64,000 nucleotides of DNA, taken from a virus. Taxonomy: Duplodnaviria; Caudoviricetes. How positions within the stretch are numbered: the stretch's first letter is position 1; every line of letters begins with the position of its first letter. Positions 47,470 to 64,000 of the stretch are shown piece by piece. The notes beneath the pieces were generated by a model that had not been told where the DNA came from, did not search any database, and saw nothing but the letters and a program-made list of their open reading frames with translations. Location of the stretch: the IMG/VR virus record IMGVR_UViG_3300017774_004101, positions 33,362-97,361 of that record. One strand, given 5' to 3'. A program made the position numbers and the translations under genes.

Positions 47470-48611
47470 ACTTTGTATTCTTAAAGGATACACGCGAATA
47501 TAATGGAGATAGAACCTATGCGATGGAAGGGCCTATTTTCTGGTATATTTATAATAAAAATTATTCACATACTATAAACTCCGAAATAAAACCAGGTTAT
47601 AGAAATATATTATTAATAGAAGGTATTGAGAAATTTCAAAGTCTATTAAATATACCAAATAGTGTGTATGATTTTATAAAAACAAATGATATAAAGTTAT
47701 TATTTACATCTATACCAGACCCTTGTAATATACATAGTTTTATTACCGGATTTAGATATATAAAAACAAAATTGCCTCGTATGAAATATTATTTAGTTGA
47801 TAGTAATAGACGATTAGAAGGTATATTATCATTTGATTTTTTCTTAGAAGAATCTATGTGGAATAGACATCAATATTTTAGAAATGAAAACAACGATTTG
47901 GGATATATAAGTGAAGAAATTCAACTAAATGAATTAGATGGGTATAGAAATAAAAAATTTATTTGTTTTAATAGGTCAGTAGACAAAGAACATAGAGTTT
48001 CTTTATTAAATGAGTATCTTAGCGGAAATTACTCAGACTCGTATTTTACATTTTTATTAAAAACCAATGGTTACGCTAGAATTTACGGCACAAAACCAAA
48101 TAATAACCAAAAACAACAAGTAAATGTTGATTTCCTTAATAGTAATCTTCCAATTGAATTAGATACCCAAAATATATTAGATAAAGGAAATTTTAGAGTA
48201 AATGATACGTTTAAAAAAGAATTATTTTTAAATTCATGTATAAATTTAGTAACTGAATCATCATTTGAACAAAATGAATTATTTGTTTCTGAAAAAATAC
48301 TAAAACCAATATTAAATTATCAACCATTTATAGTTTTTGCAGGATATGGTTATTTAAAACATTTAAAAACGTATGGTTTTAAAACTTTCTCTGATTTTTG
48401 GGATGAAAGTTATGATGATATTGAAAATCCAGAAGAACGTTTTTTTGCTTTATTAAAATTAGTTAGAAAATTGAATGAAAAGAGTATTGAAGAGTTAAAT
48501 GAATTGTACAAAAATTTAAAACATATATGTATATATAATAAAGAAATTTGGAATAAATTAGAAATCAATAGTTTAGATAATATATTAAAAAACATAGAAA
48601 ATGAATGGTAA
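47454..48611 (+). CDS. Putative glycosyltransferase (GT10-like SEK family)
   Basis: KFICFNR...HR; NLVTES...FVSEKILKPI...PF...GFKTFSDFWDESYD. Confidence 0.55.
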   Translation: MGSLLNFVFLKDTREYNGDRTYAMEGPIFWYIYNKNYSHTINSEIKPGYRNILLIEGIEKFQSLLNIPNSVYDFIKTNDIKLLFTSIPDPCNIHSFITGFRYIKTKLPRMKYYLVDSNRRLEGILSFDFFLEESMWNRHQYFRNENNDLGYISEEIQLNELDGYRNKKFICFNRSVDKEHRVSLLNEYLSGNYSDSYFTFLLKTNGYARIYGTKPNNNQKQQVNVDFLNSNLPIELDTQNILDKGNFRVNDTFKKELFLNSCINLVTESSFEQNELFVSEKILKPILNYQPFIVFAGYGYLKHLKTYGFKTFSDFWDESYDDIENPEERFFALLKLVRKLNEKSIEELNELYKNLKHICIYNKEIWNKLEINSLDNILKNIENEW

Positions 48612-49566
48612 AAAGGTTTTGATAACAGGTGCCAACGGCTTAGTTGGTAATTACATGGTTGATAAATGTATCCAAAGAGGAGCATTTGTAACCGCAGTGG
48701 ATATTAACACTCCAGAAAATCAATTAGAAAAATACAATGTGGATAACTATCAGTTTATTAAAGCTGATTTACGTGAATTCAAAAATTGTAAAAGAGTAGT
48801 TGAAGGACAGGATATAATTTTCCATATTGCAGGAGTAAAGGGTTCTCCAAAAAGAGCAGCCGAACAACCCGCGGATTATTTTGTACCAATGTTGCAGTTT
48901 AATACCAATATGATGGAAGCTGCACGTTTAGAAAATGTAGAATGGTATGTTTACACATCGACAGTTGGAGTATATCAACCGGCGGAAGTATTTTATGAAG
49001 ATGATGTTTGGAAAACGTTCCCATCAGAAAAAGATAAATATGCAGGATGGGCTAAGAGACTTGGAGAACTTCAAGCAGAAGTATATTCAGTATCATACGA
49101 TTGGAATAAAGTATCAATTGTAAGACCAGCAAATATTTATGGTAGACACGATAATTTTAGTCCAGAATCTACTGTCATTGCATCCCTAATCAAAAGATTA
49201 TTCGGTGAAAAAGAACATCCATTAGTGTGTTGGGGAGATGGTTCTCCAATTAGAGATTTTATCTATGCAGGAGATGTTGCTGATGGGATTATTCAGGCAT
49301 ACGAACAAAAACTAACACAACCAATAAATTTAGGTAGTGGAACGGGCGTAACAATTAAAGAACTTGCAGAAACTCTTGTAGAAATATACGAAGAGATGTA
49401 TGGTGAAAAAGTTGAAATAAACTGGGACCCAACAAAACCAAATGGTGATGAGAAAAGATTGATGAGCACTGAAAGAGCAGAATCATTTGGAATTAAACAA
49501 AAAATATCCTTAAAGACAGGATTAAGACATACAATTGATTATTATTTAAACGAATACAAAAAATAG
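48601..49566 (+). CDS. NDP-sugar epimerase/reductase (GDP-fucose synthase-like SDR)
   Basis: TGANGLVG, RPANIYG, WGDGSPIRDF, NLGSG, KPNG. Confidence 0.85.
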   Translation: MNGKKVLITGANGLVGNYMVDKCIQRGAFVTAVDINTPENQLEKYNVDNYQFIKADLREFKNCKRVVEGQDIIFHIAGVKGSPKRAAEQPADYFVPMLQFNTNMMEAARLENVEWYVYTSTVGVYQPAEVFYEDDVWKTFPSEKDKYAGWAKRLGELQAEVYSVSYDWNKVSIVRPANIYGRHDNFSPESTVIASLIKRLFGEKEHPLVCWGDGSPIRDFIYAGDVADGIIQAYEQKLTQPINLGSGTGVTIKELAETLVEIYEEMYGEKVEINWDPTKPNGDEKRLMSTERAESFGIKQKISLKTGLRHTIDYYLNEYKK

Positions 49567-49570
49567 AAAT

Positions 49571-50563
49571 ATGAAAAAAACAGACAAAATTTTAGTAACT
49601 GGAGCAAGTGGATTTATTGGTTCTAGATTATTAAAAAGTTTATACGAAGCAGGTTATACAAATTTGAGAGCAACTGCAAATTCTAGAGAATTAAGAAATG
49701 ATTTTGAAGGTTCTAATAATATAGAATTTGTAAAAGGAGATTTACGCAAAAGTAGTGTATGTAAAAACCTTACAAACGGGGTTGATGTTATATTCCATTG
49801 TGCAGCAAATACATCTAATGCATTAGATACTAAATTCAATCCACTATTACACGTTACTCCAAACATTGAAATGAATGTTAATCTAATGGAACAATCGTGG
49901 ATTAATTCAGTAAAGAAATTTATCTTTATATCATCAAACACAACATATCCAGATATGGGAGATATTCCTTGTACTGAAGATATGGAAATCCAAACTCCAT
50001 CAATTGTACCGGTATATAAAGCAGTTGGTTGGATGAAACGTTATTGTGAAACACTTTGTGATTTCTTTTCGAATCAAATTCACAACCCAATGCAATGTAT
50101 TATTATCAGACCTTCAAATGCTTTTGGACCAAACGATAAATTTGATTATGAAAAATGTCACGTTACCCCAGCAAATATTAGAAAGGTTGCAGATAACCTA
50201 AACCCGATACCAGTATGGGGTGATGGAACTGAAGTTAGAGATGTTATCCACGTAGATGATATGGTTAGTGGATTTATATGTGTGGCAGAAAACGTTCACA
50301 CTCATGATATCTATAATGTATCATATGGTGAAGGGTATACTGTAAACGAAGTTTTAGATACAATTAAGGATATTGAAGGTAACACCAATCCAATTGAGTA
50401 TGTAAATAATAAAGCACCAATGATACCCGTTAGATTACTTGATAATACTAAATTAAAAGCATTAGGTTGGAAACCAAAGTATGATTTACAAAGTGGATTA
50501 ACTGATGCTCTTAAATGGTATAAAGAAAATAAAAATCAATTCAATCCAAATTCACAACCATAA
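49571..50563 (+). CDS. NDP-sugar epimerase/reductase (GDP-fucose synthase-like SDR)
   Basis: TGASGFIGS, RPSNAFGPND, HV.PA.IRK, WGDGTEVRD. Confidence 0.85.
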   Translation: MKKTDKILVTGASGFIGSRLLKSLYEAGYTNLRATANSRELRNDFEGSNNIEFVKGDLRKSSVCKNLTNGVDVIFHCAANTSNALDTKFNPLLHVTPNIEMNVNLMEQSWINSVKKFIFISSNTTYPDMGDIPCTEDMEIQTPSIVPVYKAVGWMKRYCETLCDFFSNQIHNPMQCIIIRPSNAFGPNDKFDYEKCHVTPANIRKVADNLNPIPVWGDGTEVRDVIHVDDMVSGFICVAENVHTHDIYNVSYGEGYTVNEVLDTIKDIEGNTNPIEYVNNKAPMIPVRLLDNTKLKALGWKPKYDLQSGLTDALKWYKENKNQFNPNSQP

Positions 50564-51111
50564 TGAGTACACCTCAATTTACACCATATGTTGATGCATT
50601 AACAAATGCAATGAAAACACTAATGGAAGATGATAGTACAATTCTAATTGGACAGCAAATTGTTTATTATGGAAATCCAATGTCAAAAACAATTGAAGGA
50701 TTACCAAAAGAAAGAATGATTGAAGTTCCGGTAATGGAAGAAACTCAAATGGGAATAAGTTTAGGATTGGCAATGGCTGGACATAAAGTAGTTTCATTTT
50801 ACCCACGTTGGGATTTTGTAATATGTGCAGGTAATCAATTAGTAAACCATTTAGATAAAATTAAAAAAATGTCAAATGGTCAATGGAATCCTCATATTTT
50901 AATTAGAGTAGGTAAGGGTTCGGATAAACCATTAGACCCTGGTCATCAACATAAAGGAAATTATATAGATGAATTTAAATCAATGTGTCCTAATATAGAA
51001 TTTCATGATTTAAAGACTTGGCAAGACGTTGAATTATCATATAAATACGCAACCGAAAATATTGGTATTCATGTATTAGCAGAATATCCAGAGTTATACT
51101 ATGCAAATTAA
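50563..51111 (+). CDS. ThDP-dependent enzyme, E1-beta/transketolase pyrimidine-binding domain only
   Basis: LIGQ, RMIEVPVMEE.QMGISLGLAMAG, NQLVN, GHQH. Confidence 0.85.
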   Translation: MSTPQFTPYVDALTNAMKTLMEDDSTILIGQQIVYYGNPMSKTIEGLPKERMIEVPVMEETQMGISLGLAMAGHKVVSFYPRWDFVICAGNQLVNHLDKIKKMSNGQWNPHILIRVGKGSDKPLDPGHQHKGNYIDEFKSMCPNIEFHDLKTWQDVELSYKYATENIGIHVLAEYPELYYAN

Positions 51112-52546
51112 TAGAGTATTTGATTTTATTGGTCCATCTGGTTTTATACCAAATGGAGTAAATTATAAATACACATCTGATATGTGGGATAGTAATTTTT
51201 ATATTGATAATATTTTTATTGATGAATTTAATAAAAAATATTTACAAATAGCAGTATACGATTGTAATCTCAATATCGGTCCATTTAACATTACTGATAT
51301 TCATATTTTTGATTTAAAATACAATGAAGAATCTAATATAGTTGGTAATTCAAATGATAATTATTTTTATACAATAACTCCATTTGGAAATGTATTAGTT
51401 GCAACAGGTCAAGATTTCACATATCATCAGAATCAGCATGTTTTTGATTTTATATCCGAAAGGGCTAAACAATATTTAAAAGCAAAGAATTTTTATTTAA
51501 TTTTTGATTATAGTAGTGAGGGTGATATAAAACCGGATATTTTTTATAATATACACAAAGCATGTGAAACTCATAATATATGTCCATCTAAGGTAATTTT
51601 TATTACATCTGCGGTTAATACAACGGAACTATATATGGAATATTATGTAAAAGATAAAAATCCAAAATTAAAATTAAAAACAACTTGTTACCCCTGGCCA
51701 TTTTTTGCTAAAGGAAAAGAAACAGTTAAATTAATGGAAGGAAATGTTGAATTATCATTTAATGGTAATACTAATAAAAATTCAATTAGTAAAATATCGG
51801 ATTATTTTAAAATAAAGAATAGAAAAAAGAAGTGTTTGATGCTAAATAGGAGACTTAGACCGCACCGATTAATTATTCTTTCATTATTACAAAACGATAA
51901 ATTATTAGATAGTACATTATCATCATTTGATATGAAATTATTATACACACCCGATGCCGGATTGGATTTAGTTAGTGGTGGTGGATATGACAATAAACCA
52001 TATTTAACAGATTACCAAACTCGTGTAAAAATGAGTACAGGATTTCATGGATTAACTAAAATAAAAAAACAAGTAGTTGATTACGATGATATTGAATCAG
52101 TATGGGGGTTTGCATTTGAAACTAAACAACCATATGAAGATACCTATTTCAGTATTGTACCAGAAACTCTTTTTTATGAAGCAGGAAACTATATATCTGA
52201 AAAAACTTTAAAACCAATAGCACATTTACATCCATTTGTTATGTTAGGTAGACCTCACATTTTAAAAAAATTAAAGAAATTAGGTTTTAAAACTTTCTCT
52301 GATTTTTGGGATGAAAGTTATGATGAAATTGAAAATAATAGTGATAGAATTATAGCCGTATATGCTGTTATAAAAAAATTAATTTTATTATCAAACGAAG
52401 ATTGGGATAGTATGATTACAAAAATGGCATATATATTAGAACAAAATAGAAATCATTTAATGAAATTTAATGATAAGTTCGTTCCAGATACTTATATAAA
52501 GAATTTAAATAAAATAATTAACGGAGAATCCGTAGATTTACTATAA
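51101..52546 (+). CDS. Putative glycosyltransferase (GT10-like SEK family)
   Basis: LMLNRR.RPHR; SIVPET...YISEKTLKPIAHLHPF..G...GFKTFSDFWDESYD. Confidence 0.55.
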   Translation: MQINRVFDFIGPSGFIPNGVNYKYTSDMWDSNFYIDNIFIDEFNKKYLQIAVYDCNLNIGPFNITDIHIFDLKYNEESNIVGNSNDNYFYTITPFGNVLVATGQDFTYHQNQHVFDFISERAKQYLKAKNFYLIFDYSSEGDIKPDIFYNIHKACETHNICPSKVIFITSAVNTTELYMEYYVKDKNPKLKLKTTCYPWPFFAKGKETVKLMEGNVELSFNGNTNKNSISKISDYFKIKNRKKKCLMLNRRLRPHRLIILSLLQNDKLLDSTLSSFDMKLLYTPDAGLDLVSGGGYDNKPYLTDYQTRVKMSTGFHGLTKIKKQVVDYDDIESVWGFAFETKQPYEDTYFSIVPETLFYEAGNYISEKTLKPIAHLHPFVMLGRPHILKKLKKLGFKTFSDFWDESYDEIENNSDRIIAVYAVIKKLILLSNEDWDSMITKMAYILEQNRNHLMKFNDKFVPDTYIKNLNKIINGESVDLL

Positions 52547-53251
52547 ATGAATCTTATTAAAAATATAGATAATAAAGTTTTTATATTTGAAAACGTATTA
52601 GAAGAATCAATTATAGATTTATTACTAATTCATAATCAAAAAAATATTAAAGAAAATAACTATGTTGCACGAATTGGATTGATTGATGATTTAGACCCTA
52701 CAAATAATATATCATTTAATAAATCAGTAATAGATTTAACAGATGAAGAAAAATATATATGGGATAATTTTAAAAATACTGGTACTAAAAGAATTAATAA
52801 AAAAGATATTGAAATTCCAATAACTGATTATTCCTTACTATATAGTATTCAGAACCCAATAAAAGATTATTTAAGAAGTATATATGGTGATTATATTACT
52901 GAATATTATAACCAAACCACAAGTATACTTACATATTATCCCGGTCATTTAATGAATGTTCATTCGGATAGTACCCCTCATAATCCACGTATTTGCACAA
53001 CTACACTATATTTAAATGAAATGAAGGATGAATTTGAGGGTGGTGAAATTATATTTTATGGCGATATAAGTGGATATGAAAGTTCGAAGGTTATCGAAAA
53101 TAATATTATTTATACACATAGACCTCAACGGAATCAATTAATTGTATTTGATTCATATTTTAATAAAGAGGGTATACAACATTCTGTTTCAGAAATTAAA
53201 AATTGGAATAGGGATGTATTTAGAACATATTGGCAAGAAACTCCAAAATAA
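52547..53251 (+). CDS. 2OG-Fe(II) oxygenase
   Basis: HSD...TLYLN...GGEIIF...HSVSEI...R. Confidence 0.8.
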   Translation: MNLIKNIDNKVFIFENVLEESIIDLLLIHNQKNIKENNYVARIGLIDDLDPTNNISFNKSVIDLTDEEKYIWDNFKNTGTKRINKKDIEIPITDYSLLYSIQNPIKDYLRSIYGDYITEYYNQTTSILTYYPGHLMNVHSDSTPHNPRICTTTLYLNEMKDEFEGGEIIFYGDISGYESSKVIENNIIYTHRPQRNQLIVFDSYFNKEGIQHSVSEIKNWNRDVFRTYWQETPK

Positions 53252-53392: not shown

Positions 53393-53436
53393 TTCTTAAC
53401 TCATTCATATTTATACACTAATAGAGTACTACACAA

Positions 53437-56400
53437 ATGAATGAACTAAGTCAATATCTTGTCAATCAAATTTTATTAGAAGATACCGAATTACACAACT
53501 TTGTTGTAGTGTATTCAGGTAGATTCCAACCTTTCCATAAAGGCCACTACGCAACTTATCAAAATCTTTGTAAGAAATTTGGTAAGGATAAAGTGTTTAT
53601 TGGAACATCTAATAAAACCGATAATAGACAATCTCCATTTAATTTTAAGGAAAAGAAAATAATCATGACTAAAATGTTTGGTATAACATCAAACAAAATA
53701 GTTGAGATTAAGAATCCATATGCACCTACTGAAATCTTAAAAAACTTTGATGAAACTACAACTGGTTATATAAGTGTTGTTGGTGAAAAAGATGAGATGC
53801 GATTGGGTGGAAAGTATTTTGAGAAATATAAAGGTAAGATAGCACAAGGATATAAGGAAAAGGGTTATGTATATGTTTCACCCTCACAATCAAACCCAAT
53901 ATCAGGTACCAATGTACGAAATTGGTTAAGTAAGGGCGATGAAGAACAACAAAAGGCGGGATTCTTAAAAGCATATCCAAAGTTTGATGAAAAAATATTC
54001 AAACTGATTACTCTTAAACTTAAAACTATGAGTGAAGGAATGCCAGGTGGAACGGGTATCGGATTATCGTTTCCAAACGGAACAATTAATGGTGCACCGA
54101 AACCTGAAGATGTGAAAAAGATGCGTAAAAAGTTAGATGATGAAGATGAGGTAAACGAAGAGATTAAATTAGATGTTAATATTGGTGATACCATATTAAT
54201 GGGTAAATTTAAAAATAAAAAAACAGTAGTTAAGACAATTGGTAAAGATGAGCATGGTATGCCAACTATTAATGGTAAAAAAGTGGCTACATTTAGAATT
54301 CTACCAAAACAAAATATTTTTAAAGAGGCAGCATCTACTGCAGGCGGTGATGATTCACAACCCGATGGTGGATATCTACCAAAAGGTAAGACAAGAGTAT
54401 TAGGCGGTGATGATGGAGTTAATAGTAGTGATGATTGGTTTGTTAGGGGAGGTTATACCCAAACCGATTTTCCAAAAGCAGATGCAATATATGCATCAGA
54501 TGATGAAAACCAAATAACCTTTAAAATTAAAACAAAAAACAACGCTAGAAATTTGAATAAACCGACTACATATCCACTTGGATTTGATGATGTTGATGTT
54601 ACTCACGAAGTTGAAAAAATTGAAAAGGTAGAAAAGAGATTGAAAAAGAAAGCAAAACAAAAAGATTCTATTTCAGAATTAATATCTGATTATTCTGATT
54701 TATTAGATTCACTATTTGAAAGTGATGGTGAAGATGATAAATACGTGCACGTGGGGTATGGTAAATACAAAGAAAAAAGTAAAAAAGATGTAGAAGGTGC
54801 ACCCCTATTCAAAAAAGATGATAGTGGAAAATATAGTCCTATTGAGGGAGATGATAAAGGCGGTGAAGCTAAACCAACTGGTCAAGCAGTACAAGGTGCG
54901 GATATGTTTAAACATGATAAAAGTGTTAAACAACCAAAGGAAGAACCAAAACAAGAACCTACGAAAGAACCGGCTGAAGATTGGACAAGTGGAAAAGATG
55001 GTTGGGAAATTTTAGATGATGATAGGGCAAAAGTAACCACTATTAGAGATTATAGTGATGAAGAATACAAAGGTGAGACTGGTGAATATTTTGAAAATGA
55101 GGTAACTAAAAAAGTTGCACCAAATGCATTTAAAGATGAATCAGAAATGATTCAAAAAATGAAAGATGCCGAACCTGTTTACATATCATCTGAAGAATTA
55201 CAAAATATGAGTAATACTGATGTGGGTGATATTCTATCGGCAAGTGAAGAGGGTGGACAAGATTCTATGAAAGCAAGAGGTAAAGAACTTGCAGATGAGT
55301 ATGGTAAGGATTGGGATAGATTAGAAAAGGGGATTGAAAGTGGTAATGATGTTCCTCCACCATTGGTATTGAGAGATAAGAATGGTAAATTACATTTATT
55401 AGCAGGAAATACTCGTTTAATGTCATTTACTGCATATGGTAAAAAATTGCCTGTGAAAGTAATAGATTATGATGGAGAGTTTAACTATGATGAGGAAGAG
55501 ACTCCACAATCTGATGAACCAAAACGTTCAATATCAAAAAATATACAAAGAAAAATTAGTGGTTGGGCAGAAAAAGAAAAAGAATTTTTTACAAAAGGTC
55601 AAGATAAACCAAAATCAGAAACTCGTAGAAGCATAGGTGAAACTTTAAGAGATAAAGCTAAGGGTGCACGTAATGCTATTGTGCATGGATTTAAACACGA
55701 GGCACATTTATTCAAATCGGCAGCAAAAGGTGTTAGTAATTTTGTTAGTGGAAAGGAAGTAACTAAAGAAGAAAGGAAAGCCCTACTTGATGTTGGTAAA
55801 AAAGTAGTTATAGCAGGAATATTGGGAGTAGCAACTGGTGGATTATCTCATGGTATTTTACCATTTGCACAACATCTTGCAATTGAATTTGTTCCACACG
55901 TTGTAGCAGAAACAATTGCATTAGGTGCAGGAAAAGCTGCATTATTTGCTGATACTAATGAAGACGAAAGAATGTTAAATGCATTTACGGATAAAATAAT
56001 TGATGGTATTGAAAATATGGAAATACCAGAGGATGTAATGAATAGTGCAATTGATACCTATAATCAAAAAAAAGATTCAGACAAAAATAATTTAGAGGAA
56101 ATAGCAGTTCAAACTGATTTTATTCCTGGTGGATTATCAACTAATAAAAAATTAACTGATTTTGCTACAAAATATAATACTACCATTGATGTAATAAAAG
56201 AAAAAATTAAAAATGGTATTAAAGTAGAAATGGAACATACTTCAGATATTCGTTTTGCAACTAAAATAGCAAAAGACCATATTTGGGAAGATTTGAACTA
56301 TTATACTAAACTAAAAAAAGTTGAAAATGGCGTTAAATCTGAAATGGCAAAAACTGATATGGATGCGGTTGAAAAATATGCCGATTCACAAATGAATCCA

Positions 56401-58269
56401 ACTGATGTTGATTTAGGAAAAGAAACTGACCATTTTTTTCAAAGGTTGAACGACCCGCGAAATGGTAAGGAAATATCACCTGCAGAATTAACGGGATTAT
56501 TCAAAAGATTGGCTAGAAACAAAAAGAAATTTTTAGAGTTTCTAAAACAATATAGAGAGTTTGTAGTTAAAGATAGAGTATCGAATATCAATATAGCATT
56601 TATTAAAGTTGCTGATAGATTGATTGCTAAGACGGTAATGAGAAAAGCGGATTTTAAATCATCTACTCCAGTGTTTACAACCGAATCTATAAACGAAGGG
56701 GATAGAGACCCTAAAGCAATAAAAGCTTATTATGAGGCAGTATGTAAAGATTTAAAAATAACACCTTTACCGGTGAAGTTTGGTAATGTTGGAAAAGGCG
56801 GTGCAGCATTAACTTACAATGTTAAGACAATGAAACCTCTTTACATTTCATTTAATGTAAATAGCATGCAAGACCCAGAATACGCTATTCTACATGAAAT
56901 AACTCATCAAATAAAATTAGAAACTGAGCAGGATGCCTATATGGGTAAAAGAGACCAAACTGCTCAATTTAAAAAGTTAGAAAATAAACTTGTTGAGAAG
57001 TATATGTATTCAAGATTTTCCAAAATATTATGGGAATCGGTAAATGAATCAAAAGAATTAATAATGGAAGGTGGTGCATATGGACATATGAATCATCCGT
57101 TTGATACTGAAATCAATTTAACCTTCGGCCAACTTAAAGATATCGTAAATCGTGCATTGGATGGTAACTTAGAATTTGCTAGAGAGAAAACTGATGGTCA
57201 AGCATTAGCAATTAGTTGGATAGATGGTAGATTAGTAGCAGCAAGAAACAAATCACATTTGAAAAACAAAGGTGCTGGGGCGTTAGATATCAACGGAGTA
57301 GCAGATAAGTTTGCGGGTAGAGGTGAATTAACTGATGCCTATAATTTCGCGATGAAAGACCTATCTAATGCCATAAAATCATTATCCCAAGCACAAAAAG
57401 ATAAAGTATTTAAGAATGGTTCGTGTTTTATGAACATAGAGGTGATATATCCTACCTCAGTCAACGTCATTCCTTACGGTCAACCACTATTAGTATTTCA
57501 CGGAACAATGGAGTACGATGAGAATGGTGATGCAATAGGAGAATCGGCAGAAGCAGGTAGAATATTGGGTGGAATGCTTAAACAAGTAAACGCCGATGTT
57601 CAATCAAAGTATACACTACAAGGACCACCGGTATTAAAGTTACCAAAATCACAAGACCTATCATCTAAGAAAGGTAAGTATCTTACTATGATATCTAAAT
57701 TACAAAAAGAATTTGGATTGGGAGATACTGCAGGTGTTGCTAATTATCATCAAGCATGGTGGGAGAACTTTGTAGATAAGAAATCACCAACTACATTAGA
57801 TAACGCCACTAAAATGGGGTTAGTTAAGAGATGGGCGTTTAACGAAAAGGGATTCCGCATTGATAAGAATTCAATTAAGGATGAAAAAACCCTTGCATGG
57901 GCTACTAAGATAGATAAGGAAGACCATAAGGGTATTTCAAAAGATAACTTAATGAAATTTGAAGATATTTTCTTAGGAGTTGGTGCAGATGTATTGGAAT
58001 TTACCGCATCGGTACTAACAGTTAATCCAGATTCTGCTCTTAGAGAAATGCAAAAACGATTACAACAAACGATAAAGGATGTTCAGGCAAGTGGAGACCC
58101 TAAGAAGATAGATAAACTAAAATTAGAACTTAAAAGATTAAATGCAATTGGTGGTGCTAAAAGAATCGTACCAATCGAAGGAATTGTATTTGTATATAAC
58201 GGACAGACATTCAAATTAACAGGAGCGTTCGCCTCTCTGAATCAATTATTGGGTATTTTTTACGCATAA
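53437..58269 (+). CDS. 1610-aa multidomain protein: HxGH nucleotidyltransferase, ParB-like, hydrophobic hairpin, EMEH domain, HFxxR domain, HExxH domain, ATP-dependent ligase-like
   Basis: GRFQPFHKGH; PPLVL...LLAGNTRL; GIKVEMEH...DHIWE; HFFQRLNDPRN; ILHEITH; EKTDG...EGIVF...FKLTG (ligase motifs I, IV, V). Confidence 0.75.
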   Translation: MNELSQYLVNQILLEDTELHNFVVVYSGRFQPFHKGHYATYQNLCKKFGKDKVFIGTSNKTDNRQSPFNFKEKKIIMTKMFGITSNKIVEIKNPYAPTEILKNFDETTTGYISVVGEKDEMRLGGKYFEKYKGKIAQGYKEKGYVYVSPSQSNPISGTNVRNWLSKGDEEQQKAGFLKAYPKFDEKIFKLITLKLKTMSEGMPGGTGIGLSFPNGTINGAPKPEDVKKMRKKLDDEDEVNEEIKLDVNIGDTILMGKFKNKKTVVKTIGKDEHGMPTINGKKVATFRILPKQNIFKEAASTAGGDDSQPDGGYLPKGKTRVLGGDDGVNSSDDWFVRGGYTQTDFPKADAIYASDDENQITFKIKTKNNARNLNKPTTYPLGFDDVDVTHEVEKIEKVEKRLKKKAKQKDSISELISDYSDLLDSLFESDGEDDKYVHVGYGKYKEKSKKDVEGAPLFKKDDSGKYSPIEGDDKGGEAKPTGQAVQGADMFKHDKSVKQPKEEPKQEPTKEPAEDWTSGKDGWEILDDDRAKVTTIRDYSDEEYKGETGEYFENEVTKKVAPNAFKDESEMIQKMKDAEPVYISSEELQNMSNTDVGDILSASEEGGQDSMKARGKELADEYGKDWDRLEKGIESGNDVPPPLVLRDKNGKLHLLAGNTRLMSFTAYGKKLPVKVIDYDGEFNYDEEETPQSDEPKRSISKNIQRKISGWAEKEKEFFTKGQDKPKSETRRSIGETLRDKAKGARNAIVHGFKHEAHLFKSAAKGVSNFVSGKEVTKEERKALLDVGKKVVIAGILGVATGGLSHGILPFAQHLAIEFVPHVVAETIALGAGKAALFADTNEDERMLNAFTDKIIDGIENMEIPEDVMNSAIDTYNQKKDSDKNNLEEIAVQTDFIPGGLSTNKKLTDFATKYNTTIDVIKEKIKNGIKVEMEHTSDIRFATKIAKDHIWEDLNYYTKLKKVENGVKSEMAKTDMDAVEKYADSQMNPTDVDLGKETDHFFQRLNDPRNGKEISPAELTGLFKRLARNKKKFLEFLKQYREFVVKDRVSNINIAFIKVADRLIAKTVMRKADFKSSTPVFTTESINEGDRDPKAIKAYYEAVCKDLKITPLPVKFGNVGKGGAALTYNVKTMKPLYISFNVNSMQDPEYAILHEITHQIKLETEQDAYMGKRDQTAQFKKLENKLVEKYMYSRFSKILWESVNESKELIMEGGAYGHMNHPFDTEINLTFGQLKDIVNRALDGNLEFAREKTDGQALAISWIDGRLVAARNKSHLKNKGAGALDINGVADKFAGRGELTDAYNFAMKDLSNAIKSLSQAQKDKVFKNGSCFMNIEVIYPTSVNVIPYGQPLLVFHGTMEYDENGDAIGESAEAGRILGGMLKQVNADVQSKYTLQGPPVLKLPKSQDLSSKKGKYLTMISKLQKEFGLGDTAGVANYHQAWWENFVDKKSPTTLDNATKMGLVKRWAFNEKGFRIDKNSIKDEKTLAWATKIDKEDHKGISKDNLMKFEDIFLGVGADVLEFTASVLTVNPDSALREMQKRLQQTIKDVQASGDPKKIDKLKLELKRLNAIGGAKRIVPIEGIVFVYNGQTFKLTGAFASLNQLLGIFYA

Positions 58270-58322: not shown

Positions 58323-58982
58323 ATGGCAAAGGAATTTAATAAAAAGTTTATGCATCCAACTCGTAGGAAGTTGGTGGATATGGTTATGACAGGTGGTGAA
58401 TATGCTAAAAGCACCACAGTTGGATGGGAAACCGCTAACGTAGAACGAAAGGTTGGTGATGTTTGGGAAGATGAACATCATAGATATGAGAAAAAAGAGG
58501 GATTCACAATGAAAACTTCTAAAAACTCTGAAGCGTTTGATGAAATCAGAAAATATATAGCAGAATTAGAAAGATGTTCTAATCCAGATTGTACTACAAT
58601 AAAGATTAATAGTAATCATAAGAAGGTTATTAAAAAAACTGGATATTGTATCAATTGTTTAGCGGAAAGAGAACATAAAGTACGAGTTGCCGGAGTATGG
58701 GAACAATATGAGGATTATAAAATATACACTCGTATGATAATCGATGGTAAAATAAAATTAGAAGAACTCCAACAAGCACACGATGATGTGAAACCTTACT
58801 ACGAATACGTTAATGAGGATGGAACTACGGAAAAATGGGAATTACCTAATTCAGTAGAGGAAACCCAAAAAGAAATAATGGAAATTATTACAAATGGTAA
58901 AGCAGAGTTACAAAAAGTAGAAGAGTTCCGTAATAAAGCATTTGAAATTTTAAAAGAACATAATTGTGAACATTACGTTTAA
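58323..58982 (+). CDS. Hypothetical protein with Cys4 zinc finger
   Basis: CSNPDC...CINC; immediately upstream of terminase. Confidence 0.65.
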   Translation: MAKEFNKKFMHPTRRKLVDMVMTGGEYAKSTTVGWETANVERKVGDVWEDEHHRYEKKEGFTMKTSKNSEAFDEIRKYIAELERCSNPDCTTIKINSNHKKVIKKTGYCINCLAEREHKVRVAGVWEQYEDYKIYTRMIIDGKIKLEELQQAHDDVKPYYEYVNEDGTTEKWELPNSVEETQKEIMEIITNGKAELQKVEEFRNKAFEILKEHNCEHYV

Positions 58983-58994
58983 TACAAAACAATA

Positions 58995-60578
58995 ATGGCA
59001 GGAACTTCTTTAAAAGATATAATAAAATTAGAATACCAACGATGTGCTGGTGACCCTATATACTTTATGAAAAAGTATTGTATGATTCAGCATCCTGTCC
59101 GCGGTAAAATACCATTTCATTTATATCCATTTCAAGAAAATACACTAACACAATTCAAAGACCATCGATATAACATCATTCTAAAATCTCGTCAAACTGG
59201 TATATCTACCTTAACTGCGGGATTTGCATTGTGGAAGATGTTATTTAATCAAGATTTTAACGTATTGGTAATTGCAACTAAACAAGAAGTTGCTAAAAAC
59301 CTTATTACTAAAATTAGGGTAATGAATCAATACTTACCTAGTTGGTTAAAACAAACAACAGTTGAAGATAATAAACTTTCGTTACGATACTCAAATGGTT
59401 CACAGGCAAAAGCAACTTCTGCAGCAGGTGATGCTGGTCGTTCTGAAGCATTATCCCTATTAGTATTTGATGAGGCAGCATTCATTGATAATATTGAAGA
59501 AATTTGGATATCTGCACAATCTACTCTATCAACGGGTGGTAATGCAATTATTCTTTCTACTCCTAATGGTGTGGGTAATTTCTTTCATAGGACTTGGGTT
59601 AGTGCAGAGGATGGAACTAATGGATTCAATACAGTCCGTTTACATTGGACGGTTCACCCCGAAAGAAATCAAGAATGGAGAGATGAACAACAAATACTTT
59701 TAGGAGCAAAGGGTGCAGCACAAGAATGTGATTGTGATTTTGTATCCTCCGGTGATAGTGTCATAGACCCACAACTTCTAATGTTTTATAGGGAATCATT
59801 TGTACAAGAACCATTGGAAAAAACTGGCTTTGATGGAAATCTTTGGAAATGGGAATATCCTGATTATCAAAAATCATATATGGTTGTTGCGGACGTTGCA
59901 CGTGGAGATTCTACGGATTACTCCGCCGCACAAGTAATTGATATTGTTAATTCGGTACAAGTAGCAGAATATAAAGGAAAATTAGATACAAAAGATTTTG
60001 GAAATTTCTTAGTTTCCTTAGCAACTGATTATAATGAAGCACTTTTAGTAATAGAGAACGCAAATATTGGATGGGCAGTTATCCAACAGGTAATCGATAG
60101 GGGATATAAAAACTTATTCTATATGAGTAAGGATTTAAAGTATGTGGATGTTGAACATCAGATGCATAATAAGTTTAGGGCAGAAGAAAGAGGTATGGTT
60201 GCAGGTTTCTCAACTACATCTAAGACACGACCTTTGATTATTTCAAAGTTAGATGATTACTTCAGAGAGAAATCTATCACCATACGTTCTAATAGGTTGA
60301 TAGAGGAGCTTTTTACCTTTATATGGAACAATAATCGTGCGGAAGCAATGAGGGGATACAATGATGACTTAGTAATGGCGTTATCGATTGCTTTATGGGT
60401 TAGAGATACCGCATTGAGATTAAGACAAGAAGGAATTGATTTAACTATTAAATCATTGGGTGGAATTCAACAACAAACCTACGAATCTGGGTTCTATGGG
60501 GGTAGTTCTAATGATGATAATCCGTGGTCAATGAGAGTAGGTAATCAAGATGAAGATTTGACTTGGTTGATTAAATAA
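58995..60578 (+). CDS. terL: Terminase large subunit (T4 gp17-like)
   Basis: KSRQTGIST, LVFDEAAF, STPNG, ADVARG, DDLVMAL. Confidence 0.95.
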   Translation: MAGTSLKDIIKLEYQRCAGDPIYFMKKYCMIQHPVRGKIPFHLYPFQENTLTQFKDHRYNIILKSRQTGISTLTAGFALWKMLFNQDFNVLVIATKQEVAKNLITKIRVMNQYLPSWLKQTTVEDNKLSLRYSNGSQAKATSAAGDAGRSEALSLLVFDEAAFIDNIEEIWISAQSTLSTGGNAIILSTPNGVGNFFHRTWVSAEDGTNGFNTVRLHWTVHPERNQEWRDEQQILLGAKGAAQECDCDFVSSGDSVIDPQLLMFYRESFVQEPLEKTGFDGNLWKWEYPDYQKSYMVVADVARGDSTDYSAAQVIDIVNSVQVAEYKGKLDTKDFGNFLVSLATDYNEALLVIENANIGWAVIQQVIDRGYKNLFYMSKDLKYVDVEHQMHNKFRAEERGMVAGFSTTSKTRPLIISKLDDYFREKSITIRSNRLIEELFTFIWNNNRAEAMRGYNDDLVMALSIALWVRDTALRLRQEGIDLTIKSLGGIQQQTYESGFYGGSSNDDNPWSMRVGNQDEDLTWLIK

Positions 60579-60651: not shown

Positions 60652-62382
60652 ATGGCAGATACTACATTTTTCACCCGATTAAAAAAACTTTTCTCTACAA
60701 AGGCAGTTGTTACTGTCGATGCTAGTGGAAAACGAAAAGTTTTTGATGCGGATGAAAAACAACAAACTAACTTATCTTCATTAAAAGATAGGTACACAAA
60801 AATACAAAAATCTTTTTATGAACAAGCAGGTGGTGCACAATCAATGGCATACGCTCAAGTTCGTAGAGAAGTATTTAGAGATTTTGATGCAATGGACCAA
60901 GACCCAATTATAGCATCTGCATTAGATATTTACGCTGATGAATCTACACTTAAAAACGAATTTGGTGATATCTTAACAATTCGTTCAGATAATCAAAGAG
61001 TACAAGAATTATTAGAAAATCTTTTTTATGATATTCTTAATGTTGAATTCAATCTATGGCCGTGGACACGTAATATGTGTAAATATGGTGATTTCTTTTT
61101 AGGACTTGAGATTGCTGAAGGTAAAGGTATAGTAAACGTTACTCCACACTCACAATACAATACTGAAAGAATAGAAGGACATGACCCTGAGAATACCTCA
61201 CTTGTTAAATTCAAAGTACAAGAAGACCCAATTGGTAAAGTAGAGTATGATAACTTTGAAATGGCCCATTTCCGTTTATTATCGGATACCAACTGGTTAC
61301 CTTATGGTAAATCAATGATTGAAAATGGTAGAAGGTTATGGAAACAATTATCTCTAATGGAAGATGCGATGTTAATTCATCGTATTATGAGAGCACCTGA
61401 AAAAAGAGTGTTTAAAATTGATATTGGTAATATTCCACCAACGGAAGTTGATAACTACATGCAAAAGATTATCAATAAGATGAAAAAAGTTCCATTCTTA
61501 GATAAAACAAGTGGTGATTATAATTTAAAGTATAATATGCAAAATCTTACGGAAGATTTTTATCTACCGGTAAGAGGTGGTGATAGTGGAACTGCTATTG
61601 AAAACTTAGCAGGATTAGAATACGCTTCAATTGAAGATATTGATTATCTGAAAGCTAAATTATTTGCTGCATTAAAAATTCCTAAAGCATATTTGGGATA
61701 TGATGAAAATGTAAATGGTAAAGCAACCCTAGCAGCAGAAGATGTTCGTTTTGCAAGAACAATCGAAAGAATCCAAAGAACAATTACTTCAGAATTATCT
61801 AAAATAGCAGTTATCCACTTATATGGTAATGGTATTCAAGATTCTGAAATGACTAATTTTGAAATTGGATTAGTTAACCCATCTACAATCTACGAACAAG
61901 AGAAAGTAAATTTATGGAGTGAGAAAATTCGTTTAGCAACTGATATGGCTGCATTGAAAATGTTATCTAAAGATTGGATATATGAAAATATATTTAAATT
62001 ATCAGAAACCGAACAAACTGAACAACGAGGTAAAGTAGTTGAGGATTTAAAGGATGTATTCCGTTATAACTCAATAGAAAACGATGGTAACGACCCTGCA
62101 AACCCTCCAAAACAAAACGATGTTGAAGAAAGTTTAGAAAATCTTAAAACAGAATTGAAAGATAAAGGTGGTAGACCCCGCGAAGGTAATACTTATGGTA
62201 AAGACAAACATCCTTATGGAAGAGACCCATTAGGTGATGATGAGAGAACTTCAAAAAGAAGTAGAACATCTGAAACAAAAGCAATGAATTACATCAATGG
62301 GATTTCATCAAAAAAGAAATATTTACACGAAACTAAAGATATGTTAGATGAAACTAATATTATCGATGATACGGAAAATTAA
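60652..62382 (+). CDS. gp20: Portal protein (T4 gp20-like)
   Basis: LMEDAMLIHRIMRAPEKRVFKIDIGN, EDFYLPVRGG, LFAALKIP. Confidence 0.93.
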   Translation: MADTTFFTRLKKLFSTKAVVTVDASGKRKVFDADEKQQTNLSSLKDRYTKIQKSFYEQAGGAQSMAYAQVRREVFRDFDAMDQDPIIASALDIYADESTLKNEFGDILTIRSDNQRVQELLENLFYDILNVEFNLWPWTRNMCKYGDFFLGLEIAEGKGIVNVTPHSQYNTERIEGHDPENTSLVKFKVQEDPIGKVEYDNFEMAHFRLLSDTNWLPYGKSMIENGRRLWKQLSLMEDAMLIHRIMRAPEKRVFKIDIGNIPPTEVDNYMQKIINKMKKVPFLDKTSGDYNLKYNMQNLTEDFYLPVRGGDSGTAIENLAGLEYASIEDIDYLKAKLFAALKIPKAYLGYDENVNGKATLAAEDVRFARTIERIQRTITSELSKIAVIHLYGNGIQDSEMTNFEIGLVNPSTIYEQEKVNLWSEKIRLATDMAALKMLSKDWIYENIFKLSETEQTEQRGKVVEDLKDVFRYNSIENDGNDPANPPKQNDVEESLENLKTELKDKGGRPREGNTYGKDKHPYGRDPLGDDERTSKRSRTSETKAMNYINGISSKKKYLHETKDMLDETNIIDDTEN

Positions 62383-62449: not shown

Positions 62450-63319
62450 ATGAAAAAAATTAAACATTCGAAATTTAAAAATACTGGGTTTTTATTCGAA
62501 CTATTAACTCGTCAAATCACGTTGGAGATTTTAAATAATGCTCCGGTTGAGAAGGCTAAAAAAATAGTACAAGAATTTTTTGGTGGTAAAACTGAATTAG
62601 CAAAAGAATTGCGTTTATTCAATTTACTTACAACTGAAAAATATAATTCAGAAAGCAAAGCAGAAAAATTTATTGATGCTATTATCGAAACTCGTACTAA
62701 ATTAGATGAAACTAAATTATTAAGAGAAAAATATAATTTAGTAAAGGCTATTAAAGAAAATTTCAATATTGAAGAATTTGTTGCTTCTCCTGTTTCTAAT
62801 TATAGAGTATTAGCATCGGTTCATAAGATTTTTGAAGCAAAGATACAAGATGTAACTAATGTTAAGGATGTATTTGATGCTAAGATTACATTAGTAGAAC
62901 ACGTATCTACAACCCAAACATCTATTAAGAAGATTGAAGATAAATTAATGGAAACATATAAGAATCAAGAAAAAGATTTGAGATTGTTGACATATAAAAT
63001 TCTAATTGAAACATTTAACAATAAATACACTAACTTAAACGACGACCAAAAAGGTCTTTTAAGAGAATTTATTAATAATGTTAATAACACTTCTAAATTC
63101 GGTGAATACTATGATTCACAATTAAAGAAAGTGGTGACCGAACTTCATAAATTACATTCCGAAATTAACGATAAAATCACAAAAATTAAATTAAAAGAAA
63201 CTATCAATGTTTTAAAAACACAAAAGATAGGAAAGAAAATTACTGATGAACAAGTTTCAGCGTTGATGATATCATACGAATTAATAAAGGAAATAACCAA
63301 TGTCAGAAAAAAATATTAA
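62450..63319 (+). CDS. Hypothetical helical protein in head-assembly cluster
   Basis: 289-aa ORF right after portal, preceded by ATATTTATA at 62401. Confidence 0.65.
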   Translation: MKKIKHSKFKNTGFLFELLTRQITLEILNNAPVEKAKKIVQEFFGGKTELAKELRLFNLLTTEKYNSESKAEKFIDAIIETRTKLDETKLLREKYNLVKAIKENFNIEEFVASPVSNYRVLASVHKIFEAKIQDVTNVKDVFDAKITLVEHVSTTQTSIKKIEDKLMETYKNQEKDLRLLTYKILIETFNNKYTNLNDDQKGLLREFINNVNNTSKFGEYYDSQLKKVVTELHKLHSEINDKITKIKLKETINVLKTQKIGKKITDEQVSALMISYELIKEITNVRKKY

Positions 63320-64000
63320 ATCTTTTATAGACGAACTTATTAAGGAAGTCGAAGATGAATTAGATGAAGCCAATGTGACAGGTAATGTTGATGGTTACGA
63401 TACTCCTCATGCCTTTTCTGGTAAAAATTCTGATAAAAAAAGAAAAAAAACTGCAACACAATTCGGTTATACATTAGTAAATAATGATATTAATAATATT
63501 GATGAATCCATAAACGAAGATACTAAACGTGTAAATATATTAGGTATAGATTTTAATATAAGTGAAATGAATGGAAGAATATTCTTTTCTTTTATAGATA
63601 AAAAAGCAGCAAGTATTAAAATTAGAGAAATAGGAACTAATAAAATAGTAAATCTTATACAAAATAGTTTAGATAAAGCATATGGTAAGGGCGAGTTTTT
63701 CTTTAAAGGTGGAGACCATGCTGAATTTCAAAATGGATATTTATTCCAACGAAGTATCGGTAATATAAAACTTAATAAACTTAAATTTGAATCAGTAAAC
63801 GAAGCTAAACCATCAGTAGTGGGAAACATGAACGCTTATGGACCATCAAAAGTATTGGGTAAGGGTGGGGAGGTTTTAGGATTTGTTCCAGATACTCCAA
63901 ATGCTATAGCAACTCTAATACAAGATTATCCAACTGTTCAGGCAATAGAATTCAAATCTTCTTTTTTCTTTAATTTTAACTCATATAAGAGTATAAAAAA
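63300..64000 (+). CDS. Putative head-internal modular protein; runs off window end
   Basis: Open frame from ATG 63300: MSEKNIKSFIDELIKEVEDELDE-ANVTG...ESINE-DTK...ESVNE-AKP...; not in ORF track. Confidence 0.75.
   Translation, partial: MSEKNIKSFIDELIKEVEDELDEANVTGNVDGYDTPHAFSGKNSDKKRKKTATQFGYTLVNNDINNIDESINEDTKRVNILGIDFNISEMNGRIFFSFIDKKAASIKIREIGTNKIVNLIQNSLDKAYGKGEFFFKGGDHAEFQNGYLFQRSIGNIKLNKLKFESVNEAKPSVVGNMNAYGPSKVLGKGGEVLGFVPDTPNAIATLIQDYPTVQAIEFKSSFFFNFNSYKSIK

Follow-up and report, generated by a model that had tools for sequence, protein, structure and literature searches.

Comparative sequence analysis points to a probable capsid-targeted cargo polyprotein, built of exchangeable cassettes, beside the packaging genes of T4-like phages

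This study concerns one large gene in a 64,000-nt stretch of phage DNA (IMG/VR record IMGVR_UViG_3300017774_004101, Caudoviricetes), which is referred to below, at its full length, as the window. The gene is an open reading frame (ORF) on the + strand, with an ATG start and 1610 open codons (53437..58269), exactly as described in a first-pass annotation of the sequence. The best-supported reading of the results presented here, and in our judgement probably the right one, is that it encodes a capsid-targeted head-cargo polyprotein of a T4-like phage, predicted to be cut by the prohead protease. Comparison with related proteins shows, at the level of aligned sequences, that the chain consists of autonomous cassettes situated between a constant NMNAT-like N-terminal domain and a constant ligase-like C-terminal domain (the N and C domains), and that a short joint peptide marks the exact points at which relatives have gained, lost, swapped or reordered these cassettes.

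At least 2034 proteins of 885–2818 aa matched the window's protein at E≤0.001 among 8000 candidates scored. The family counts given below refer to the best 120 of these matches, the query itself (P0001) included. The N domain was found in 116 of the 120 and the C domain in 119. Between them, 46 different cassette orders were observed, with individual cassettes present in 29 to 111 members. The segment corresponding to residues 968–1095, for example, lies ahead of that corresponding to 888–963 in many relatives, and the segment 237–304 is situated just before the C domain in others. Some relatives carry recognisable enzyme cassettes, such as the HD domain (PF01966, by Pfam) in P0062, P0147 and P0152. 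At the other extreme, a 639-aa protein of Microcystis phage Mel-JY01, whose gene is also located a few genes upstream of the terminase gene, aligns with residues 8–195 and 1169–1608 and with nothing in between, i.e. it comprises the N and C domains only. No paper on this phage was found in a literature search.

The positions at which cassettes are exchanged can be read directly from the multiple alignment. The cassette containing an HExxH motif (residues 1088–1204) sits between ...FTTES-INE and ...ES-VNES, and P0004 and P0006, in which it is missing, read ...FTT-ES-L[LI]MEGG at this point. The same slot is occupied by an unrelated cassette in P0005 and by yet another in P0017 and P0018, with both flanks unchanged. 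Similarly, the linker cassette 201–241 is missing from P0005 and P0006, the gap running precisely from LSE to the following hydrophobic-x-E. The first-pass annotation had called for homologues to be compared for gain or loss of modules at such motifs, and for these two cassettes the outcome is favourable, the gain or loss falling exactly there.

The tripeptides which that annotation had placed at the apparent domain boundaries are all present (LLE15, MSE200, VNE241, FKE297, LFE428, LEE888, KSE969, ESINE1083–1087, ESVNE1200–1204 and IME1211). Glu, however, accounts for 124 of the 1610 residues, with a median gap of 9, so that some x-x-E can be found near any boundary. Boundaries were defined without reference to the motif, from the points within the protein at which BLAST alignments of P0001 with its 119 relatives terminate; the 676 ends formed 14 peaks. 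The sites tested were the nine internal ones of the annotation, with ISE414 and TNE842 added. Nine of these 11 fell within 6 residues of a breakpoint peak, as against 2.5 for random sets of Glu residues (P ~5e-5, 20000 draws). When the original nine were considered alone, eight did so, IME1211 being 13 residues away. The proposed coincidence of sites and boundaries is real, although the number of generic motifs in the protein is ordinary, being that expected by chance. The longer word E[ST][VIL]NE, which was picked after the sequence had been seen, occurs twice, compared with an expectation of 0.0085, and none of 2000 shuffled sequences reached two.

Across the 120 proteins the consensus of the joint is (E/D)(S/D)[IVL]NE, with weaker hydrophobic-x-E variants; the residues ahead of the motif are mostly E/D and then S/D (139 contexts after removal of near-duplicates). 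[VIL]NE is the commonest form of [VIL]xE in the middle regions of these proteins, with 267 copies. Starts of BLAST alignments amount to 29.7 per [VIL]NE within –12 to +6 residues of it, in comparison with 3.5 per 19 residues elsewhere, and the corresponding values for alignment ends are 18.9 and 4.2. No pile-up of breakpoints was seen in the 120 proteins at the control words [VIL]ND and E[VIL]N. The 268 occurrences of the motif precede 54 different downstream 12-mers, and as many as 10 different upstream contexts are found for a single cassette. At the DNA level, there are 42 spellings (as 12-mers) for 131 S[VIL]NE motifs, making use of six Ser codons, of Val, Ile and Leu, and of both AAC (54%) and AAT (46%), although one 12-mer represents 39 of the 131. 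Selection therefore acts on the peptide, which is retained through these replacements and synonymous changes.

The extent of cassette exchange is best seen by comparison with a close relative. L005, a 229-kb viral contig, encodes a terminase, a portal protein and a next gene product that are 98.7, 99.1 and 98.3% identical, respectively, to those of the window. The polyproteins are 74% identical, as compared with 97–99% for their neighbours. Identity is 90–100% in residues 1–200, 251–700, 1001–1050 and 1201–1610, about 50% in 701–900, about 24% in 901–950 and 10–24% in 1101–1200. The low values are concentrated in whole cassettes, which argues for replacement of the cassettes and not for drift. 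Judged from these sequences, the polyprotein gene is a diversity hot spot.

The N terminus of the chain has the appearance of a targeting leader. In the window's protein it reads MNELSQYLVNQILLE (residues 1–15; 53437..53481, + strand), with N at position 10 and LLE at 13–15. The N terminus of most relatives is M[NK]xL[SA]x[FY]LVE (M..L..[FY]LVE at residues 1–10); the first Glu of the window copy is at position 15. Hydrophobic-x-E at position 15 is kept in 90 of 109 spanning alignments, but conservation of individual sites among relatives carries little weight, because ordinary family conservation gives the same result.

A leader is also seen where the C domain is encoded separately. A search with this domain alone yielded many 413–415-aa proteins starting MIRLxK[IL]L[NS]E-VLLKEGGAYGHMNHPFD, i.e. 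the split C-domain gene begins with a 10-residue leader, MI[KR]Lxx[IL]LxE. A pattern scan of viral contigs for the MIRL...EGGAYGH start gave 29 loci, of which 28 were analysed (L162 is the same contig as L119). In 20 of the 28, an in-frame stop is located 2–9 codons upstream of the MIRL ATG, so these are truly separate C-domain genes. Six others continue a chain of 678–1066 upstream residues, within which the leader persists, following ...SINESEE or ...KESIE, and the remaining two run to the end of the contig. At L185 the gene is divided into three, with products of 562, 160 and 414 aa; the latter two begin with MIKLTDLLSE and MIRLKKLLSE, respectively.

A set of 1606 unique ORFs from the fetched loci was used to determine how widely the leader and the joint are distributed. 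The pattern ^M..L..[FYILVM][LIVM].E was present in 124 of them, compared with 0.78 (maximum 4) when residues 2–40 were shuffled. The carriers include 54 of the 88 members of the polyprotein class, 10 of 16 and 8 of 46 members of two head-block families, and 2 of 117 terminases; a further 50 are unclassified proteins of 99–160 aa, many of them encoded between terminase and portal. The pattern was absent from the portal (109 sequences), 219-aa (105), 289-aa (95), 499-aa (77) and 152-aa (57) families and from the protease (53). Under a rule requiring 60% coverage, which replaced a single-linkage clustering that had merged 118 of the 124 ORFs, at least nine unrelated families bear the leader, a number that includes the split C domain and the pair of head-block families. 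Only one of 56 small leader ORFs matched a polyprotein. By analogy, the leader resembles the capsid targeting sequence of T4, where the N-terminal 10 residues of IPIII are enough to direct a protein to the head and the cuts made by gp21 follow L/I-X-E (PMC9026906; PMC3012670, PMC5694885).

The joint is likewise associated with head genes. Among the 47 ORFs of the window, ES[VI]NE is found only in the polyprotein (twice) and in a partial head-block ORF downstream of the portal gene (63300..63998, + strand; ES-INE at residues 69–73 and ES-VNE at 164–168). L005 extends past the end of the window, and its head block could be followed further. After the portal come a 289-aa protein, a 499-aa protein with four ES-VNE sites, each followed by A, a 152-aa protein, a Peptidase_S77 protease (PF03420, 8.8e-27; head maturation protease phrog_207, 1e-48), and then, in this order, proteins of 146, 423 and 519 aa. 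The 423-aa protein begins with MIKLNNLLNE and the 519-aa protein with MIRLSKIVKE; the latter has four VNE sites, of which two are ES-VNE. Last in the block are an S21 gene, the gene for an acidic protein of 371 aa and that for the Gp23 capsid protein. An S77 protease is also annotated in Flavobacterium phage immuto. In T4, the core genes lie between those for the portal and capsid proteins (PMC9026906). The density of S[VIL]NE per 1000 aa is 3.12, 2.32 and 1.45 in head-block families 1, 2 and 3, 0.36 in the polyprotein class, 0.02 in the portal and 0 in the terminase. As a separate observation, the S21 gene within the L005 head block encodes ribosomal protein S21 (PF01165, 4e-15; L005:18755–19057).

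In the mechanism envisaged here, the leader would act like the T4 capsid targeting sequence and bring the chain into the prohead core. Cutting by the prohead protease after the Glu of the leader and of every joint would then set the two constant enzymes (NMNAT-like and ligase-like) and the variable cassettes free within the head, and some of the products, at least, would exit with the DNA at infection. As the flanking joint is the same, and in frame, for all cassettes, one could be replaced by another through recombination with the reading frame left intact, and such exchange would explain a gene far more variable than its neighbours. From the nature of the two constant enzymes, our guess is that the function is an early-acting one, directed at nucleotides or NAD or at RNA ends. 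A tentative extension of these ideas, which we consider possible but doubtful, is that the joint does two jobs, serving both as a head-protease site and, through its DNA, as an in-frame recombination joint, the whole forming a plug-and-play cargo array. Any protein that gained flanking joints could then be loaded into the capsid, released singly and delivered with the DNA; populations would trade cargo cassettes while the rest of the head module stayed near-identical; and genes would move freely between an existence with their own leader, as their own gene, and that of a cassette in the chain.

The idea of a cargo polyprotein had been put forward in the first-pass annotation, and it is sustained here by the conserved joint at the seams, the joint in head-block proteins, the S77 protease of L005 and the leader on the split forms. 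The roles assigned there to the cassettes fared less well: no family match supports the nuclease-like, peptidase-like or anti-defence functions proposed for them. A prediction that the sites would lie in disordered linkers was examined for ES-VNE 1204 and IME 1211 alone, both of which are in a stretch with a predicted local distance difference test score (pLDDT) <50.

Several observations weigh against a protease-cut, capsid-targeted chain. At 180 kDa, it would be a very large precursor for a T4-type core, and the window's own leader has Asn, not Glu, at position 10. Generic sites are no more frequent in the polyprotein than expected ([LI]xE, 16 seen and 16.2 expected; [VIL]xE, 21 seen and 23.3 in shuffled sequences). 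Several of the joints (MSE, FKE, LEE, KSE) are degenerate, and at KSE969 hydrophobic-x-E is kept in only 14 of 47 spanning alignments. Other forms of [VIL]xE are also found near breakpoints (e.g. [VIL]TE, 42.8 vs 3.0), in part because an NE site is close by, a few residues away (LTEAMINE, for instance); a middle Asn is thus strongly favoured but not obligatory. The predicted propeptide site of the capsid protein reads LDE, not NE. The protease gene lies beyond the end of the window and was seen in relatives only (L005 and immuto). The motif-rich head-block proteins match no known family in Pfam or PHROGs, and the core or scaffold role suggested for them is derived from their gene order between portal and capsid. 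Finally, relatedness inflates all of the counts made on the 120 proteins.

Other explanations must also be considered. The protein could be a packaged precursor resembling core or scaffold proteins, targeted and cut, in which most of the middle cassettes are filler or assembly peptides that are degraded and expelled like T4 gp22, gp67 and gp68, with at most the two enzymes being delivered. We think this unlikely: turnover at the level of cassettes between near-identical phages is a trait seen more in conflict proteins than in parts used for assembly, cassette 970–1087 is kept in 111 of the 120 relatives, and there are the recognisable enzyme cassettes, such as the HD domains, mentioned above. 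It is nevertheless the case that much of residues 200–545 is low-complexity, acidic and lysine-rich, that the middle cassettes are without any proven enzymatic family and that the motif is densest in head-block proteins at the position of the T4 core proteins, which are themselves cut and exit from the head as numerous fragments (PMC9026906).

Quite unlikely, in our view, is an uncleaved, multidomain cytoplasmic enzyme made late, with the joint serving as flexible linker or recombination joint only and with an N-terminal likeness to head proteins that has nothing to do with packaging. Short DNA identity could guide recombination, given the dominance of one 12-mer among the encodings of the motif, and in the single sequence the motif is no more frequent than chance predicts. 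Yet the peptide is kept through its 42 encodings, the joint turns up again in unrelated proteins of the head block, which are no shuffled cassettes, and split genes gain a leader common to unrelated small head-module proteins; the gene also lies beside those for terminase and portal, and it shares a promoter-like motif with the portal gene. Iyer et al. (2017) propose the release of domains by embedded metallopeptidases (PMC5512222), and by this model a classical self-processing polyvalent protein would be cut, before packaging or after injection, by its embedded HExxH (zincin-like) cassette. P0001 has such a cassette, with HEITH at 1153–1157, and the motif is kept in all 38 homologous cassettes. 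As these are found in only 38 of the 120 relatives, however, self-cleavage is unlikely as a general rule. At least one joint is present in 72 of the 79 members lacking a middle HExxH (3.44 per 1000 aa), in comparison with 30 of the 41 that have one (1.88), and a Pfam search at E≤1 gave no peptidase model for the cassette. Furthermore, a Glu before the cut is the rule for serine proteases of the gp21 type (PMC9026906). This explanation is regarded as very improbable.

The constant N domain (residues 16–197; 53482..54027, + strand) is an NMNAT-like nucleotidyltransferase of the HIGH-motif type. The HxGH nucleotidyltransferase of the first-pass annotation was borne out by Pfam, in which residues 25–161 match PF01467 (cytidylyltransferase-like) with 32.2 bits, above the cut-off of 21. 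The domain contains FHKGH at 33–37 and ISGTNVR at 155–161, which we take to be the second motif of this class of enzymes. The PHROGs match is to phrog_395, cytidyltransferase (5e-12), and among solved structures NMN (nicotinamide mononucleotide) adenylyltransferases alone are matched by sequence (1f9a, 3e-4; 2qjt, 8.4e-4). In the Pfam search of the whole protein, PF01467 and DUF5661 (see below) were the only credible matches.

The constant C domain (residues 1212–1610 and stop, preceded by SKELIME with IME at 1209–1211; 57049..58269, + strand) has previously been described as ligase-like, and this description is supported by invariant motifs and weak fold matches. It contains KTDG (1251–1254), NIEVIYP (1333–1339), VFHGT (1353–1357), EGIVF (1581–1585) and FKLTG (1592–1596), which presumably correspond, in order, to ligase motifs I, III, IIIa, IV and V. 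In 42 sequences that are 69–80% identical, the invariant residues are K1251-T-D-G, E1335 in NIEVIYP, F1354-H, E1581-G-I-V-F and K1593. As indicated above, the domain is also encoded as a separate gene of 413–415 aa.

An AlphaFold2 model of the C domain, made with the 42 sequences, has a pLDDT of 79.9 and a predicted template modelling score (pTM) of 0.75; its first 19 residues, which include ES-VNE and IME, are the sole stretch with a pLDDT below 50. A Foldseek search of the PDB with the model gave no match at E≤1e-3, the best plausible rows being RNA ligases, namely the Rnl3-type enzymes 8uce (0.029) and 2vug (0.031) and T4 Rnl1 (0.36). In VIA-align, the adenylyltransferase domains of ligases superpose on model residues 57–207, with Z scores that are all below the tool's caution line of 8: 6.3 for 6imk, the African swine fever virus (ASFV) ligase (105 aligned, root-mean-square deviation 4.2), 5.6 for 6rce (Pmar-Lig), 5.5 for 5cot (NgrRnl), 5.2 for 9qw7 (Trl1) and 4.7 for 6dt1 (T4 DNA ligase). 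Among predicted viral structures, the model has strong matches to 'cytidyltransferase-like' proteins from uncultured phages (7.7e-48 to 1.9e-19); those to named RNA ligases are at 0.02–0.3 only. We read the C domain, from its motifs and this model, as a putative divergent covalent nucleotidyltransferase. Like the ATP-dependent RNA and DNA ligases (Rnl1, Rnl3, Rnl5, Trl1 and the DNA ligases), it has an invariant KTDG and further motifs in ligase order. It differs from them in being without a sequence-family match, in its weak fold scores (Foldseek E≥0.02, Z 4.7–6.3) and in an insertion of about 225 mostly helical residues between VFHGT and EGIVF.

Enzymes with a similar name occur in virions. 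The virion proteome of cyanophage S-CREM2 holds a 'cytidylyltransferase', and the same paper remarks that enzymes of this kind are a frequent finding in the virions of cyanophages (PMC10665884). One of the virion-detected proteins listed by Sullivan et al. (2010) is a putative 'citidylyltransferase (T4-GC190)' (PMC3037559). Homology to T4-GC190 is not claimed, and these cases are cited as a parallel and not as support. Comparison of the C-domain profile with S-PM2p142 (GC190) and p143 by hhalign gave E values of 0.63 and 0.43, a BFVD Foldseek match to an S-PM2 protein had an E value of 1.2e-3 and a TM score of 0.23, and no cyanomyophage was recovered by tblastn.

The cassettes of the middle region are encoded, on the + strand, as follows. 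MSE (198–200) is succeeded by the 41-residue linker cassette 201–241, rich in Gly, Pro and Lys, which ends in DEVNE with VNE at 239–241 (54028..54159); breakpoint peaks are situated at 198 and 237. The small cassette A (242–297, EIKLDVNIGD...; 54160..54327) ends in FKE at 295–297 and is present in 98 of the 120 relatives, at varying positions in the chain and in 6 distinct upstream contexts. At L187 (4122–7989), where the chain is broken into proteins of 270, 1009 and 413 aa, the middle piece starts inside cassette A (MPTINGKKVATF...) and is without a leader; this break may be a recent frameshift or a wrong start. Cassettes 298–428, ending in LFE at 426–428, and 429–545 (together 54328..55071) are mostly low-complexity and acidic or lysine-rich, and are found in 55 and 59 of the 120, respectively. 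Breakpoint peaks in this region are at 300, 347, 408, 425 and 513.

Cassette 546–690 (55072..55506; in 41 of the 120) contains GNTRL at 657–661 and had been called ParB-like. The sole lead for this label is a weak one, to ParB_N in Protein Atlas (score 0.89, with ParB_N on 21% of one cluster); the cassette has no Pfam match, nor any match among PDB sequences. It is followed by a helical cassette (55507..56100) with a hydrophobic hairpin at 790–838 and a tail, 843–888, that ends in LEE at 886–888. The hydrophobic stretch that gave rise to the term hairpin is real, the maximum of the 19-residue Kyte–Doolittle average being 1.81 at 790–808. This cassette is about 50% identical to the L005 copy, with flanks that are at least 90% identical.

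The 'EMEH domain' of the annotation proved to be DUF5661 (889–969, with EMEH at 931–934; 56101..56343). Residues 922–964 match PF18905 with 34.1 bits, the cut-off being 27, and the cassette occurs in 69 of the 120. Cassette 970–1087 (56344..56697), with HFFQRLNDPRN at 999–1009, ends in the joint ES-INE (1083–1087; nt 56683–56697). It is the one found in 111 of the 120, and it is also encoded by stand-alone genes in cultured phages. Residues 1001–1079 match phrog_14518, a PHROGs family of unknown function, and a Protein Atlas search with 889–1087 gave nothing (0.77). Stand-alone homologues of 889–1087 (e.g. P0248–P0361 and immuto gp080) often start MKK[SN]Q[IL]R[EK]IIKE, 12 residues ending in I-K-E, which is possibly the targeting leader of another phage lineage; a strict leader of the MIKLxxLLxE type was found in only 4 of 120 such homologues.

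The HExxH cassette (56698..57048) ends in the joint ES-VNE (1200–1204; nt 57034–57048). The motif that had been noted there is thus present as described, but a peptidase assignment gains nothing from Pfam at E≤1. A profile search of the middle region against PDB sequences, with an alignment of 196–1210, returned NMNATs only.

Two further proteins with the motif were observed. At L149 (11880–14426), a separate 848-aa protein with eight [SIVN][VI]NE sites (KESVNE, IESVNE, KSVNE and others) is encoded between the family gene and the terminase gene, and is apparently a second polyprotein of the same style, as judged from its sequence. The 841-aa gp079 of immuto, a phage in which genes of the leader type are also present, carries NESVNE and KESLNE.

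The closest known systems are three. With the T4 internal head proteins (IPI, IPII, IPIII and Alt), the polyprotein proposed here shares a T4-type head module (a gp17-type terminase and gp20-type portal, with S77 protease and Gp23 in relatives), an N-terminal leader of about 10 residues that ends in hydrophobic-x-Glu and is common to otherwise unrelated proteins, predicted cuts after Glu, and cargo genes far more variable than the surrounding head genes. Unlike the T4 proteins, many cargo units would be present in one reading frame, with internal sites between them at which they are shuffled, and the extended site, (E/D)(S/D)[IVL]NE, known here from sequence alone, is more specific than L/I-X-E.

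The polyvalent proteins described by Iyer, Burroughs, Anand, de Souza and Aravind in 2017 are also large, contain many disparate domains, are encoded beside packaging genes and are predicted to travel with the DNA, and an analogy to viral polyproteins was drawn by those authors (PMC5512222). The composition of the window's protein is of this type, with NMNAT-like, DUF5661, HExxH and ligase-like units in one ORF two genes upstream of that for TerL, and a possible ParB-like cassette also occurs in it. There, however, release is attributed to embedded peptidases and not to the prohead protease; neither a conserved joint peptide nor an N-terminal targeting leader is described, and the terms 'NMNAT' and 'DUF5661' do not occur, in the available text of that paper (PMC5512222). 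The hub domains named in that text (MPTase, ArdC-N, DdrB-ParB, MuF and ART) were not detected here by Pfam (at E≤1 for MPTase and ParB) (PMC5512222). In the giant phages phiKZ, 201phi2-1 and SPN3US, a diverged homologue of gp21 processes many of the head and ejection proteins, recognising a short motif and cutting after its Glu, and there are redundant sites within propeptides (PMC5694885, PMC9026906). In contrast to the present case, each of these proteins is a separate one, with a long propeptide and sites of the form S/A/G-X-E or A-X-E, and they do not make up one chain of shuffled cassettes (PMC5694885, PMC9026906).

No published protease-punctuated head polyprotein with a conserved joint and a leader was found in the literature searched (main texts). 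Relative to that literature, the format appears to be new, with kinship to both the T4 internal proteins and the polyvalent proteins. If the reading of the gene as a capsid-targeted cargo polyprotein is correct, the T4 paradigm of capsid-targeted, protease-trimmed internal proteins would also cover a polyprotein format, found in uncultured aquatic phages that are very abundant, and the diversity hot spot beside highly conserved packaging genes would be accounted for. The leader and the joint peptide would constitute a simple sequence rule for predicting phage proteins that ride in the capsid, and many 'hypothetical' genes of head modules would become testable candidates for takeover of the host, or for counter-defence, in the first minute of infection. 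T4's targeting sequence has been used to load foreign proteins into heads. The present elements would represent a compact natural tag for targeting and release, which could be tried for the same purpose in laboratory phages.

The genomic setting is that of a T4-type packaging region. Every large ORF of the window is on the + strand, and its G+C content is about 30%. By terminase and portal DNA, the closest cultured phages are Flavobacterium phage vB_FspM_immuto and Microcystis phage Mel-JY01. As had been stated in the annotation, the polyprotein gene is the second gene upstream of that for the T4-type large terminase (58995–60578). The 219-aa ORF that intervenes (58323–58982) is 95–98% conserved in close relatives and gave no match in family searches; its position suggests a small terminase subunit. 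Downstream of the terminase gene are the gene for a T4 gp20-type portal (60652–62382; PF07230, 3.7e-68) and, within the window, two ORFs without a known family.

A putative late motif had been noted ahead of the polyprotein gene. The promoter-like motif TATTTATA is indeed present at 53408..53415 (+ strand), 29 nt upstream of the start codon, but the generic late promoter of T4, TATAAATA, is not enriched on the + strand (26 matches, 22 expected), and it was the reverse word on that strand which proved informative. Of the 19 copies of TATTTATA on the + strand, 11 are inside the 2.6 kb of intergenic DNA in the window. The copies span positions 320–62409 (e.g. 5338, 17593, 35622, 53408, 60590 and 62402), often in the form ATATTTATA, and are found 14–70 nt upstream of many starts, including those of the polyprotein, the portal and the gene at 62450. 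On this distribution, TATTTATA is a candidate promoter of this phage group.

A second variable spot was observed immediately upstream of the polyprotein gene (51101–53251). The 481-aa product of the ORF at 51101–52546 is only 36.6% identical to its L005 counterpart, compared with 93–99% for its neighbours, and the gene for a 2-oxoglutarate-Fe(II) (2OG-Fe(II)) oxygenase at 52547–53251 has no match in L005. This oxygenase gene is situated between the polyprotein gene and a sugar-nucleotide and radical-SAM cluster. The cluster of sugar-modification genes directly upstream (41696–51111) encodes a radical SAM enzyme, three proteins similar to nucleotide-sugar epimerases and one similar to dTDP-4-dehydrorhamnose 3,5-epimerase.

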